DNA of 63,870 nt, filler included, from Porpidia crustulata (lineage: Eukaryota): the NCBI GenBank assembly GCA_964255105.1. It is 8 parts of 8 records of this genome, joined end to end, with 100 filler letters (N's around TTAATTAATTAA, not from the genome) between each part and the next. Parts side by side here need not be neighbours in the genome. Positions count along the whole stretch, not along the records: positions 40,016 to 47,906 come from CAXUWE010001219.1; 7 more parts are not named here. The stretch is one strand, 5' to 3'. Position 1 is the first letter of the stretch. Each line of letters begins with the position of its first letter. The position numbers and the translations under genes are program-made. Of the stretch, positions 40,945 to 45,813 are shown in pieces. The notes beneath the pieces were generated by a model. The model saw only the letters and a program-made list of their open reading frames with translations, did not search any database and was not told the DNA's origin.

Positions 40945-42045
40945 ATGGGCAGGCAGGATGCGTTACGGATAGCCAGAGAGGTTTGTGAGATGCTAGAGCG
41001 TGGATTCCTCGAAAGCGTCTGACCAACTCCATGTTAGTCGATAATTGTGGCCGGTGGTTCTAAAGGGCTTGGTCTGGAGTTATCCAAACAGCTGATTGCA
41101 AGGGGTAAACGACACCTACAACATTCTTTCTTACCCGCATCTAATTCATCGAACAGGTGCTAACCTACTCATTGTGGCCCGGGATACCAAAGCCCTGCAA
41201 AGCGCCAAAGAAGAGCTGTTACGACTACGCAAACACCCTAAAGACCAATGGGTTGAAACGTATTCCGTTGATCTTACAAATGCGGCAGAGGTGAGTGATT
41301 TGGAGCGAGCATGAACTCCAACAGGACGTCAATGCTGACCAAGCGTTAGGTTCAGTCGTTTGTTGCTTTGATCAAAGAGGCCCCTTCCTCATTGTTCTGT
41401 GTCGCTGGTGGCACAGCTGAAGAAGTAGGGTACTTTGCGGAAATCAAAGCAGACCACATCCTATCATGCTTCGAGAAGAATTACCTCTCCTCCGCTTATA
41501 TTGCCCATGCAGTTCTTCGGCGATGGCTAAAGGAGCCAGCCCATCTCGACGCACCATCGAGGCACATTGTCTTTACAGCATCGACAGCAGCATTCGTCGC
41601 ACTTCCGAGCTTAGGCGCATACACGCCCACAAAGACAGCCATCAGAGCCTTGGCCGATACCTTGCGCCAAGAAATGCTTCTGTACGAGCCGTGGCAAGTG
41701 ATCAAGATCCACTGTTCATTTCCAAGCACAATGTTCACGGGTGCGTGGGCAGAGGAACAGAGGAATAAACCGGATTTGTGCAAAGAATTAGAAGGAACGA
41801 CAGATCAAGCAGGGAAGGGAATGACTGCTAAAGCGGTTGCCAAAGGAATAATGGCTGGTCTGGCTCAGGGCCATTACCTGGTCACTGTGGACATGGACAC
41901 GAAGTTGCTGCTAAACAATATGCGAGGCCCAAGCCCGCCGAACTCTTACATGTGGGACTGGGTGCTTGGATGGGTGGCTTCTTTGGTTTGGCCGTTCTAC
42001 AGGAGAGCGTGGGATCGAAAGACGATTGCACACCATTACAAGTAG
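40945..42045 (+). CDS. Short-chain dehydrogenase, 3-ketodihydrosphingosine reductase (Tsc10/KDSR)-like, about 310 aa
   Basis: Exons 40945-40980, 41038-41104, 41157-41290 and 41350-42045. Motifs IIVAGGSKGLG (Rossmann), GANLLIVARD, LFCVAGG, NYLSSAYIAHA, RHIVFTAST, catalytic YTPTK followed by AIRALADTLRQE, and a hydrophobic C-terminal segment. Confidence 0.85.
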
Positions 42046-42826
42046 CCCTAGATAACTCATTAGCATGACATACGTATACAAGTAGACGAGAAATCTTTCA
42101 GGTATCACCATCGTGTGGCGTCGAGAACTTGATCACGAGCGTATTTGCCATATCTTAGCACGTAGACTTCGACACTGGGTCAGCACGTCAACATCGGTTG
42201 AACTCAAAGGCTGCCAAGTCAGCTTCGGTTAGAAATTATCTGTCAAATCGCAGGGCCGAATCTTCGAATATCTCGGGCTTGCAAATCGAGCCGAAGCTAA
42301 GGTTTCGAAAGCCTGGGCTAGGTACCTGCAGCTTATCGTCACAAATATCTTATAAATATATAAACCTCGGCATCCTGGGGAGAAAAGGGTGGAGGTGGGC
42401 GAGACTATCTTGGGACCTTAGTCAGGGACGCGATTGTAATCCGCGAGACGACCCAAGCTCGTACCCGAATCTGTCATCCTCCGACGCTTGAACCTGCAAC
42501 GTCAGGATGGTAACAGCCCTAGCGTGCCTTGCAGCTCTTGCTAGGTTAACAGACGCTAACTCGACCGTGCCGTACATTGAGCATAAGCCGTAGCACATGG
42601 AGGATCCGTCAGATCGGTATCATCGTGGCCCCCTGTTGTCGGTGGGTTTTGGACGATTGTGTGGTAGGATAAACTCCGACTCCCAAAACATGAACACAAT
42701 GTAATACTTAGCTGCAAATTCGTTTGGCAGTGGCCAGGCGAATTTAAGTAAGGTTGGTTCCACTTGACACGGAATTCTGAATACACCAGCATCTGTATCA
42801 ATTTTCTTTGACTATCGGTTTTCTTC

Positions 42827-45813
42827 ATGATGGCCTCCCAGGAGACAATGATTCTCCCAATGACGCCACCCAAGGAAGAGCTTGAACTGAAGGAGCCCAT
42901 ACCACAAAAATTCGATCATCTTCTATTACATGCGAGACTTGACGCACCAACCCCTCCCAAAACACCGGAGATCCTTTCTGAAAAAGCTCTTTCGAGCGAA
43001 ACATCTCTCCCTACTCAACATGACTTCGAGGCTTCCACGTTCTCAGAAGTGCCAGCCGCCGTAAAGGCAGCCGTCGTAGATCTGATAAAGCCAGTGGAGC
43101 CACCAGTAACGTACAAAGAGATGTTTCTCTTCGTTGTTTGGAGTTTTGTACTCGTACTCAAGCAAGTTTGGAGAGATGTCTCATCCTTCGACTGGTATCG
43201 CCCACTTTTGTCAAACGATTTCATGACACATTATTTTGTGAGTGCTTCTTCCTCGGTTGAGACTTTCTCGGATAGTAGCCAACAGATATTCAGTATATCC
43301 CAGCCGCACGCACTGATCCCCGGCTTGTAACTTCGGGCCCGCATAACCGAATGACAATTAGGACCATTCCAGGATCGATACCGCAGTGGGAACTGCTTGA
43401 CGATCTTACTAAGTTCCCAGAGAAGGAGGTAGTCAATTGTGCTTCCAGCAATTACGCAGGCTTCTCGATGCTTGAGCATGACATGGAAAATGTGATCAAA
43501 TCAGCGATACAAACTCTTCCTTGGTGTCCAGCACCGCCGGCTTTGGAGGAAAGGCTAAGAAAGACATGCGCGGAATACATGGGATTCGAAGCTTGTGTTA
43601 CAGCGCCGTCTGGTTTCGGCACCAACTTGATTGCGTTTGAATCGATTGCAAACGTAGCCAAGGCACAGGGTCGCCAAATGGTTTTCCTGTGCGACGGAGA
43701 TGCTCATAATTCAATGCTTACTGGATGCTTTTACCAAAAGGAGGCCAAAGTGCATCGATTCGAGCATAACGACATCGCGGACCTTGAATTCAAACTCAGA
43801 ATGTACCGAGAACAAGCACCATCCACTTTCATATGTGTGGCCGTCGAAGGGATCTATAGGTTAGTTAAACACTTTGTCGTCGTTGCGTCAGTGATCTAAG
43901 GACCGGAAACTAATTTACACGCAGTATGGAAGGATCTATGTCGCCGGCGCCTGCACTTATCGCCCTGAAGAAAGTTTACAATTTTTGTCTGCTTGTCGAT
44001 GAAGCACATTCATTCATGTCAATCGGATCCGCTGGTCGGGGGACATTTAACCGCTGGCAGGATCTTGGGTACGATTGCCCATTTGATGGCGCAGATGTCA
44101 TGACCTTCACATTTTCGAAAGGAGTAAGCAGCACTGGTGGCTTTGCTCTAGCAAATGGCATCCATGCCGAAGCCCTACGCAGTCAAGGCCAGGTCCTTGA
44201 ATCTCGTGGCGTGGAGTCGCTGTCTACAGTCGTTCTATTGCGATTCCTTAGTATTCTAATGAAAACAAAGTTGGTGGAAGAGAGGATGCGTATAGTCCTC
44301 GAAAAATCGAATTATGTGGCGGCAAAGCTTAAGGAAGCCGGTCTCAGGGTTCTCTCGGCACCCGGGTCGCCCATGATCTGCTTTCCAGTCGGTGAGTACT
44401 TTTGCGTAATAATCATTGACCCTCCTGTGGTTCTGTCTATTGATATTACTGGTTGAACCCCAGCTGACTTTCTTGGCAGGAACTGTACGACAAGTAGCAC
44501 TCTTTCATACCGAGGCATTAAAGTATGGCATGGCCATCGTAGGCGGAGTACCTCCCGCAACACCGTTCTGGTGAGACCTTGACCTTAATAGCGTGTCCAT
44601 TTCGAGAAATCGGAAAGACTAATTCCATCTATAGGGGTTGCCGCGTACGTTTATGTGTCTTCGCGAGCACCACCTGGCCAGATATCTACCGTCTGCTGAC
44701 AACATCAGTTGCCGTCAGTCTGAAGATCAGAGTCAATGGCGCAAGACATGTAAATTTTGACAAAGGACTTTTGGAGAGGAAAGACGTGAACTCGGCTATT
44801 GCTGAGAGCCAGTCTAAAGCCGTTGATGCCGAGCTCCTTGAATACATTAAATCTCTCCGCTCATATAAGCCCATGGAATCTCATAAGCATGGCGTTGAAG
44901 AAGAGGCCAAGGTTACCGCAGTCGAGGGATTAAAACGTTACAGCGTAGGACCGGGGTCTGCTAGATGGTTTTACGGCTCCTTTGACGTTTTCGTCGCTCT
45001 TGAGCAGCAATTGGCAAAGCTATATCCATCTTTAATCAAACAAGGTGGGAGGAATAAAGGTGAGCTATTTGAAGCAAGCGTAGAAAGATCTGAACAAAAA
45101 GCTGATGAGATATAGCAATGATCTGCTCGGACACCGAGCTTGGGATAGGCACAAGCGTTCTCGCAAGTGTGGTTCCACTTGCATCGTCAAAGACAAAACA
45201 TTTGGTGTTCATCGACGCCAAAGCGCCCAAGAGCGTTCTCGATGGCGTGAGGATGCATAAATCCCACAGACGCGTCCAAATATACTTTTATGACAAAGCC
45301 TCGGATATTCCTGGGTTATTGAGTATGCTTGGTGGTTCGAAATCCCACCTCACCATGTACTTTCAGACTGTGGTCGATGGCGAGATTCTGGACCTTCGAT
45401 CGCTCTTCGAAAAAGTCATACCGAAAGGAAAAGTCTTTAGTAGCATGACAATTTTCCTAGATGATCGCAGAGGGATGGGCAAAATCGGACCTCGATCGTT
45501 GGGATACCTTGACCTTATGGAACACCGATACGGCGTAAACTTCCTCACCGACACGTTTAAGCATCTGAAATGTGGAGTCAAGACCATCGTCGCTGGCTCC
45601 TTCTTTGAGGCCTTCGGCCATTCTGGTGGCTATATAACAGGGCATGCAGCGACCGTTGAATCCTTGACCTGGAACACGCGAGGGTTCTTATTTTCTGCGC
45701 CTCCTCTTCCCTTGCAAGCAATGATGACAAGCCGAACCATTCAGCTGTTAGAGGAAGGGAAACCTAGGGAGGATTCGGAGCGAGATATGGCGAAGCACGA
45801 AGAGCTCTTATAA
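42827..45813 (+). CDS. Single-chain serine palmitoyltransferase-like alpha-oxoamine synthase (LCB2-like fused to LCB1-like), about 885 aa
   Basis: Exons 42827-43237, 43294-43859, 43925-44391, 44480-44570, 44635-45059 and 45116-45813 total 2658 nt in frame. First half: NCASSNYAGF, SGFGTN, VEGIYSMEG, LVDEAHS, TFSKG, PPATP...RVRLCV. Second half: GLKRYSVGPGSARWFYG, FLDD..GMGKIG, GSFFEAFGHSGGY, FLFSAPPLP. Confidence 0.85.

Follow-up and report, generated by a model that had tools for sequence, protein, structure and literature searches.

We analyzed a 63,870-nucleotide (nt) stretch of DNA of the fungus Porpidia crustulata (assembly GCA_964255105.1), hereafter the window, which consists of eight parts joined with 100 filler letters between each and the next. 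The part at positions 40,016-47,906 (CAXUWE010001219.1) bears two adjacent genes, one encoding a short-chain dehydrogenase/reductase (SDR) of the Fum13/TSC10 3-ketoreductase type and the other, downstream of it, a fused alpha-oxoamine synthase of the Fum8 type (Table 1). A preliminary description of this DNA had reported two co-oriented genes about 780 nt apart; our models place both on the plus strand, within exactly the limits that it gave (40945-45813), and put the spacer between them at 781 nt.

Table 1. Positions of the gene pair, its motifs and the adjoining features, counted along the window
Feature	Position	Strand	Remarks
5' stump of a fatty-acid-hydroxylase-superfamily (SUR2-like) gene	40016..40115	-	divergent from the SDR and upstream of it
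SDR gene, Fum13/TSC10-type 3-ketoreductase	40945..42045	+	4 exons, 310 aa
SDR exons	40945-40980, 41038-41104, 41157-41290, 41350-42045	+
Glycine motif AGGSKGLG, cofactor-binding	41050..41073	+	kept in 10/10 alignment rows
EKNY, tetrad Asn	41473-41484	+
FTAST, tetrad Ser	41572-41586	+
YTPTK, catalytic YxxxK	41620..41634	+	aligns with its counterpart in TSC10 8jat
Spacer between SDR and synthase	42046..42826		781 nt; no Pfam match on its open reading frames
Fused alpha-oxoamine synthase gene, Fum8-type	42827..45813	+	6 exons, 885 aa
Synthase exons	42827-43237, 43294-43859, 43925-44391, 44480-44570, 44635-45059, 45116-45813	+
Hydrophobic segment MFLFVVWSFVLVL (aa 99-111)	43121..43159	+	Kyte-Doolittle window >1.5 at residue 93
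LCB2-like catalytic half	43294..44740	+	PLP lysine and DEAHS aligned to SPT2
DEAHS motif of the LCB2-like half	43998-44012	+
FTFSKG with the PLP-binding lysine (Lys 391)	44106-44123	+
LCB1-like non-catalytic half	44906..45813	+	start matched best in the PDB by human SPT1/LCB1 (E 3.7e-4)
GPGSAR, Ala 621 at the substrate-selectivity position	44948-44965	+
DDRRG in place of DEAHS, second half	45460-45474	+	His -> Arg in the ALAS/AONS alignment
FFEAFG, Glu at the PLP-lysine position	45601-45618	+	Lys -> Glu in the ALAS/AONS alignment
Short non-coding relic between synthase and nitronate monooxygenase	47600..47906	.	no Pfam match
Nitronate monooxygenase, first gene downstream of the pair	47951-48856	-	PF03060, E 3.1e-51

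The fused synthase and the reductase

All eight introns of the pair are of the GT..AG type and 52-88 nt long (56-88 nt for the five of the synthase), and the joined frames of both genes are free of internal stops, so that 1,195 codons and eight introns are without a defect. Each model aligns end to end with full-length homologs, the synthase being colinear with proteins of 831-872 amino acids (aa) with all its exons matched, and there is no break in base composition at the pair. These are real, intact genes, and both are presumably expressed.

Pfam and Protein Data Bank (PDB) searches resolve the synthase into two alpha-oxoamine-synthase halves. The N-terminal half is LCB2-like: the best PDB matches of exon 3 are SPT2 of the human serine palmitoyltransferase (SPT; E 1.1e-9) and yeast Lcb2, and the exon preceding it matches a bacterial SPT. 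Across 14 homologs the lysine of this half that binds pyridoxal 5'-phosphate (PLP) is invariant, and its equivalent in the LCB1-like second half is Asp or Glu. The protein stops soon after an FSAPP motif, which leaves its domain incomplete by about 100 residues, and has no C-terminal small subdomain; given that every full-length relative stops at the same point, the short end is a trait of the family and not a truncation. Judging from its hydropathy, a hydrophobic segment in the first exon is likely to be a membrane anchor. The residue preceding the conserved Arg of the GxxSxRWFYG motif, which corresponds to the selectivity position, is Ala in the window synthase; of the 14 relatives aligned, 10 have Ala as well, those of Cylindrodendrum and Bipolaris have Val, and one Xylographa paralog has Pro, as does human LCB1. 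At the corresponding position of Fum8, Ala has been tied to the use of alanine and Val to that of glycine (PMC7376913, section 9). Xylographa trunciseda has two fused synthases (tags 008504 and 000769), and it is the second of these that resembles LCB1 in having the Pro.

By its sequence the synthase is a member of the Fum8 family. Like Fum8 of Fusarium and of Aspergillus section Nigri it joins an LCB2-like and an LCB1-like half in one chain, and the resemblance extends to the Ala at the alanine-linked position; Fum8 has been described as one chain fusing an Lcb1-like and an Lcb2-like subunit, whereas the other sphinganine-analogue clusters covered by that source use single-protein aminotransferases (PMC7376913). 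Sequence searches recovered relatives of 800-870 aa, two of which bear the name 'a-oxoamine synthase fum8' in their source, with identities to the window synthase of 56% for Teloschistes, 52-55% for Candelaria and Candelina, 54% for Coccidioides CIMG_01207, 48% for the Aspergillus sclerotiicarbonarius fum8, and 42-43% for Cylindrodendrum and Bipolaris. We placed these in a tree of 25 rows, built by a quick method with Shimodaira-Hasegawa-like approximate likelihood ratio test (SH-aLRT) support only and not including Fusarium Fum8. The fused family is split from four SPT/Lcb2 rows by a branch with a support of 100, and the window synthase falls in a 19-row clade (support 99) that contains both fum8-named proteins. 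Nearest to it is a 71%-identical partial protein, followed by those of Teloschistes, Candelaria and Candelina, and these belong to a 16-row group, also including Coccidioides, three Aspergillus species, Xylogone, Thelocarpon and Xylographa, that is sister to the group of A. sclerotiicarbonarius fum8, Cylindrodendrum and Bipolaris. In the ESM Atlas the synthase falls in an 86-member cluster of Ascomycota aminotransferases of about 801 aa, with names given at family level only.

The SDR matches the Pfam family adh_short (E 2.2e-10), among solved structures it is closest to TSC10 (8jat, E 9.9e-13, with the next match at 5.3e-7), and its Asn-Ser-Tyr-Lys tetrad is intact. At E <=1e-30 a scan of 1.84 billion representatives found 25 proteins; 191 matches came from a word-based search. 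In a tree of 109 rows (again a quick method with SH-aLRT only, the clades being named via three cluster look-ups) the housekeeping TSC10 clades track taxonomy, with those of Saccharomycotina (Yarrowia, Lipomyces), Taphrinomycotina (Pneumocystis, Saitoella), Basidiomycota and Pezizomycotina, the last comprising Kalaharituber, Blastomyces, Amylocarpus, Aplosporella, Nemania and Pyrenula. The window SDR lies outside all of these, in a 33-row clade (99) within a 48-row clade (SH-aLRT 99) of paralogs found only in Pezizomycotina. It is 54-56% identical to members of this accessory clade versus 29% to the housekeeping proteins of Blastomyces and Yarrowia, and the accessory-clade SDRs, that of the window included, are without the N-terminal extension of about 50 residues of the housekeeping TSC10. 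Further, A. nanangensis carries two different members of the SDR family, and there is therefore paralogy inside one genome. The 33-row clade also contains An01g06830 of A. niger, presumably the protein known as fum13, which is likewise a TSC10-derived SDR with an intact tetrad; the window SDR is 49% identical to it and differs in lying directly upstream of the synthase, Fusarium Fum13 not being among the rows of the tree. An01g06830 is annotated as Tsc10-like (PMC5106034) and falls within the An01g06930 cluster as delimited by hand, from An01g06810 to An01g06970 (PMC3689640, Table 6), a cluster whose polyketide synthase (PKS) is FUM5/FUM1-like (PMC5106034). On the strength of the tree and the identities, the window SDR is a TSC10-derived paralog of a cluster-associated clade and not the housekeeping ortholog.

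These features bear on one account of the pair, namely that it is the ordinary SPT and TSC10 of the genome, linked by accident. The superfamilies are the right ones, no solved structure matches the SDR better than TSC10, and housekeeping SPT (Lcb1/Lcb2) and Tsc10 have the same folds and catalyze the same reactions, steps 1 and 2 in the synthesis of sphingoid bases. However, housekeeping SPT is formed by two separate, complete subunits, as against one frame with a shortened LCB1-like half in the window, the SDR groups outside the housekeeping clades, the housekeeping genes are dispersed whereas those of the window are linked, and the spread of the family among Aspergillus species is patchy, which makes an accidental linkage of ordinary genes highly improbable.

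Linkage of the pair and the upstream hydroxylase

Having proposed that the pair be sought across fungal genomes, the preliminary description is borne out on this point, as the linkage is conserved. We examined 15 named family members of >=750 aa (P0002, P0003 and P0299-P0311) for adjacency, and found an SDR under the adjacent locus tag in five of them: Xylographa (008504/05), Coccidioides (CIMG_01207/08), Thelocarpon impressellum (004676/77), Candelaria (006202/03) and Candelina (006047/48). In A. spectabilis (165811/165814) there is an SDR with a near-numbered identifier on a contig of equal length, and in A. oleicola and A. sclerotiicarbonarius the synthase and an SDR are on equally long contigs; the remaining seven had no SDR partner among the matches listed (120 of 191). 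The hosts of the linked pair comprise Lecanoromycetes, Candelariomycetes, Thelocarpales and Eurotiomycetes. Another 15 loci (L001-L015) were fetched from metagenomes with the synthase family profile, and the SDR adjoins the synthase in four of them, being upstream and co-oriented as in the window in L011, L013 and L014, and downstream on the opposite strand in L012. Since the same two families adjoin in several distant fungi, their linkage is more than chance. The loci L013/L011 (926-13495) and L014/L015 are distant relatives, with 40-46% identity in the last exon; L013 has genes for a cytochrome P450, a major facilitator superfamily (MFS) transporter and a PrpF-like protein beside the pair, and L014/L015 have an MFS transporter, a helix-loop-helix (HLH) factor and a UDP-glycosyltransferase. 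No PKS was found in the sequence examined of L011, L013, L014 and L015.

Upstream of the SDR the window retains the 5' stump of a divergent hydroxylase gene, consisting of the 5' untranslated region, an ATG at 40087-40085 and the first 24 or so codons. It was recognized by tblastn (68% over 22 aa, E 3.9e-5) and blastn (73% over 89 nt), and the ATG is conserved when its DNA is aligned with that of five relatives. Beyond the masked letters next to it (39916-40015) no hydroxylase similarity was found. A divergent gene of the same superfamily lies just upstream in seven of the 15 metagenome loci (L001-L004 and L008-L010), all seven of which are without the SDR. The hydroxylase gene of the relatives matches FA_hydroxylase in Pfam (E 5.8e-10) and falls in generic FA_hydroxylase clusters of the ESM Atlas, the SUR2-like subfamily being putative.

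The closest described context is that of CIMG_01207-01210 in Coccidioides immitis, the synthase and SDR of which are each 54% identical to those of the window. Here consecutive tags, from the numbers of which adjacency is deduced, denote the synthase, the SDR, a SUR2-like protein and an alkaline phytoceramidase-like protein. In PMC3401177 CIMG_01207 appears as 'Fum8p', CIMG_01209 as 'SUR2 (fatty acid hydroxylase superfamily)' and CIMG_01210 as 'alkaline phytoceramidase', and Table S2 of that paper has all three up in the parasitic phase of both Coccidioides species (1.95/2.42-fold, 11.9/23-fold and 8.9/6.6-fold, respectively); CIMG_01208 is in neither table of the paper. As this order is the mirror image of the stump, SDR and synthase of the window, it points to an old cluster in which at least the synthase, the reductase and the hydroxylase were combined. 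In the window the hydroxylase has been lost, and no ceramidase-like gene was seen.

Genomic surroundings, erosion and polyketide synthases

The pair had been described as the only intact genes recognized on the contig, which does not hold: a survey of the window with Pfam, covering 106 stop-to-stop open reading frames (ORFs) of >=100 aa and one follow-up Pfam search, found 13 further recognizable genes, mostly housekeeping, namely those for a PX/DUF3818 protein, CCDC97-like and spermine-synthase-like proteins, a response regulator, threonyl-tRNA synthetase, a BAR/PH protein, FAM210, SPX-EXS and DUF3759 proteins, a carboxylesterase, nitronate monooxygenase, taxilin and an M16C peptidase. No PKS (KS, AT, DH or other PKS domain), non-ribosomal peptide synthetase, P450, transporter or acyl-CoA ligase is among the window genes as judged by Pfam on the 106 ORFs, and 23 small ORFs beside the pair have no Pfam match. 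A tblastn search of the window with the PKS of L007 gave nothing at E <=1e-3, and those with the PKS, P450, MFS transporter, PrpF, GNAT, UDP-glycosyltransferase and HLH factor of the relatives gave no match, so that among the companion genes searched by tblastn only the hydroxylase stump was matched. Because the carboxylesterase, nitronate monooxygenase and other neighbors in the window are near the pair in none of the 15 related loci, they are not members of the module. The preliminary description had also suggested a larger cluster broken by the assembly. This is not supported by the 40 kb upstream and 18 kb downstream in the window, where housekeeping genes stand and where, unlike in Fum8 clusters, there is no PKS or other FUM-type gene; given these ordinary genes on both sides, the module is not cut by the assembly. 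The missing parts were rather lost or moved in the genome itself, as indicated by the hydroxylase stump and by flanks unlike those of the relatives.

Nucleotide similarity between the window and its close relatives is indeed limited to 42518-45758, both flanks being unlike; it takes in the last 309 nt or so of the spacer, which blastn aligned with the region upstream of the synthase in L004/L008. Ten loci are 73-84% identical to the window synthase in the last exon. In L004/L008 (8815-9266) a 1-nt deletion just before the codon of the PLP lysine and a 14-nt deletion 218 nt further on are present in both contigs, and as the same two deletions are shared this synthase is probably a pseudogene. 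In L001-L003 (9837-10639), L009 and L010 the 5' two-thirds of the synthase and the intergenic region are deleted, and only its last 800 nt or so remain, directly beside the hydroxylase gene. Farther out there is a frame of 482 aa, an MFS transporter in L001-L003 and L008 (the sequence of L009/L010 ends before its position), and a remnant of a DDE transposase in L004. The 482-aa frame (2522-3981 on the plus strand in L004/L008, and also in L001-L003) stands between the MFS transporter and the hydroxylase, is 96-98% identical among these loci, and has no Pfam match.

Such decay raises the possibility that the window pair too is a silent relic, the two genes of a dying cluster being open by chance or through recent orphaning and making no product. 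The reduction of the hydroxylase to a stump, the unrelated flanks, and the frameshifted or 5'-truncated synthases of the closest relatives all point this way. However, not a single defect is present in the codons and introns of the pair, and all catalytic residues that were checked are kept. Moreover, when the window synthase is compared with those of L004, L005 and L007, the ratio of nonsynonymous to synonymous substitution (dN/dS) of the single exons is about 0.03-0.13 at saturated dS, which indicates that purifying selection acted over most of the divergence; with each of the three relatives dN is much lower than dS, although as an average over the whole divergence and not just the recent branch. 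We consider a silent relic unlikely.

A different context is seen in L005-L007, where an intact synthase is head to head with a highly reducing PKS (HR-PKS; about 2-6430 on the minus strand) with KS, AT, DH and C-methyltransferase domains and the start of an ER domain, and a GNAT acetyltransferase lies about 3 kb 3' of the synthase; neither SDR nor hydroxylase was found in the 20 kb examined. Of the 15 loci only these three have a PKS next to the synthase; they form one near-identical group, and count as one of the six independent contexts seen. An HR-PKS within a few genes, as in a fumonisin-type cluster, occurs in L005-L007 only and is missing in the window. This locus is one ground for viewing the pair as part of a split toxin pathway, in which an HR-PKS elsewhere in the genome would make a methylated polyketide that the synthase off-loads and the SDR reduces, in the manner of Fum8 and Fum13. 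The synthase of L005-L007 is 73-74% identical in the last exon and divergently adjacent to its HR-PKS, the characterized member of the family acts on a polyketide, Fum8 taking the polyketide chain in fumonisin clusters (PMC11796371), and An01g06830 of the SDR clade is inside the limits of a FUM1-like PKS cluster of A. niger. Against this, the 64-kb window has no PKS or PKS remnant, the single PKS-bearing context stands among six, and the hydroxylase/SDR/synthase arrangement of the window, of L001-L004 and L008-L010 and of Coccidioides has no PKS between or beside its genes in the sequence examined. On balance a split pathway of this kind appears rather unlikely.

Downstream of the pair, the relic preceding the nitronate monooxygenase gene has an 84-nt match (78%) to DNA 3' of the synthase in L011/L013, and is perhaps that of a transposon, its ORFs seemingly having a transposase-like look. 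Throughout the window, pairs of runs of 44 N with 12 bases between them recur about every 8 kb (7911-8010, 15921-16020, 23926-24025, 31924-32023, 39916-40015, 47907-48006 and 55891-55990), interrupting among others the hydroxylase stump and the 3' end of the nitronate monooxygenase gene; they look like deliberate masking rather than assembly gaps.

A putative accessory sphingoid-base pathway

Of the original proposal that the pair supplies steps 1 and 2 of accessory sphingoid-base synthesis, the core has gained from the fusion, the SDR clade and the conserved linkage, all Fum8/Fum13-like and non-housekeeping, while the premise of no other intact genes had to be dropped. We tentatively favor, with confidence falling slightly short of even, the reading that the pair is the intact two-enzyme core of an accessory sphingoid-base pathway, for which the acyl donor would most likely be an ordinary acyl-CoA. 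This choice of donor follows from the lack of a linked PKS here and in most relatives and from the sphingolipid-like ancestral context. The synthase may be viewed as a single-chain mimic of the LCB2/LCB1 heterodimer with one active site, in which the N-terminal half would bind PLP on Lys 391 and the dead, shortened LCB1-like half would complete the active site, an internal pairing that we infer from the pattern of residues. It would catalyze the condensation of a long-chain acyl thioester with an amino acid (alanine by our prediction), yielding a 3-keto amino intermediate, and the SDR would then use NADPH to reduce the 3-keto group, giving a 2-amino-3-hydroxy long-chain base, i.e. an analog of sphinganine or 1-deoxysphinganine. 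Alanine is suggested by Ala 621, given the link of this position to alanine use in Fum8, and we hold alanine as the substrate and a 1-deoxy-type base as the product with low confidence. The pair itself probably descends from the old cluster of synthase, ketoreductase and SUR2-like hydroxylase, of which the hydroxylase is now a stump.

Several points weigh against this accessory pathway. The stump and the altered flanks show that the locus is eroded, and the nearest relatives of the synthase are decaying, by the shared deletions in L004/L008 and as remnants in L001-L003, L009 and L010. The only intact close relative, that of L005-L007, is beside an HR-PKS, as in fumonisin clusters. Finally, the prediction of alanine depends on one residue.

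Comparison with other systems suggests one more use for such a pair. The SphA/SphF pair of the sphingofungin system and the SAM1-SAM5 clusters of Fusarium share with the window a core of aminotransferase and 3-ketoreductase, although their aminotransferases are single proteins beside a PKS (PMC7376913). In A. fumigatus SphA and SphF support sphingolipid synthesis and counter self-poisoning (PMC10936153), and Fum13 partly complements a yeast mutant in 3-ketosphinganine reductase (PMC7376913). By this precedent the window pair could be an inhibitor-insensitive back-up of housekeeping sphingolipid synthesis, guarding against an SPT inhibitor made by the fungus itself or by its partner. However, its selectivity position is occupied by Ala where LCB1 has Pro, which speaks against the use of serine, there is no toxin cluster nearby, and SphA is of the single-protein type rather than a Fum8-type fusion (PMC7376913). 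A back-up role is hence improbable.

Both enzyme families are already known, and the Lcb1/Lcb2-type fusion is in print. In the literature searched we did not find a description of a Fum8/Fum13-type pair in lichen-forming lineages, of its conservation without a linked PKS, or of its association with a SUR2-like hydroxylase; no paper joining Fum8 with Sur2 was found there, and reports on lichens, fumonisin and FUM8 were, from title and abstract, unrelated to the pair. Sphinganine-analogue pathways have so far been sought as clusters of PKS, aminotransferase and SDR, and in the main survey of them Kim et al. openly raise the question of PKS-less routes (PMC7376913, section 15). The window locus and its relatives provide concrete PKS-less candidates, with the pair kept across Lecanoromycetes, Candelariomycetes, Thelocarpales and Eurotiomycetes, as a rule without a PKS within reach and in two cases next to a SUR2-like hydroxylase.

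The accessory pathway could be taken further, to an ancient, PKS-independent second sphingoid-base cluster (Fum8-like, Tsc10-like and SUR2-like, with or without a ceramidase-like member) of lichen-forming lineages and Onygenales, which would make 1-deoxy-type bases from alanine and fatty acyl-CoA, and from which fumonisin-type clusters would have arisen by recruiting an HR-PKS, a step that L005-L007 would illustrate. We offer this as a speculative extension that is itself rather doubtful. If acyl-CoA is indeed the donor, fungi would have in this pair a way to make atypical sphingoid bases, possibly of the 1-deoxy type; it would plausibly be ancestral to the fumonisin-type clusters, and would give lichen fungi a kind of lipid metabolite not reported before. 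If it is not, the locus would still be a clear snapshot of such a cluster in the course of eroding.

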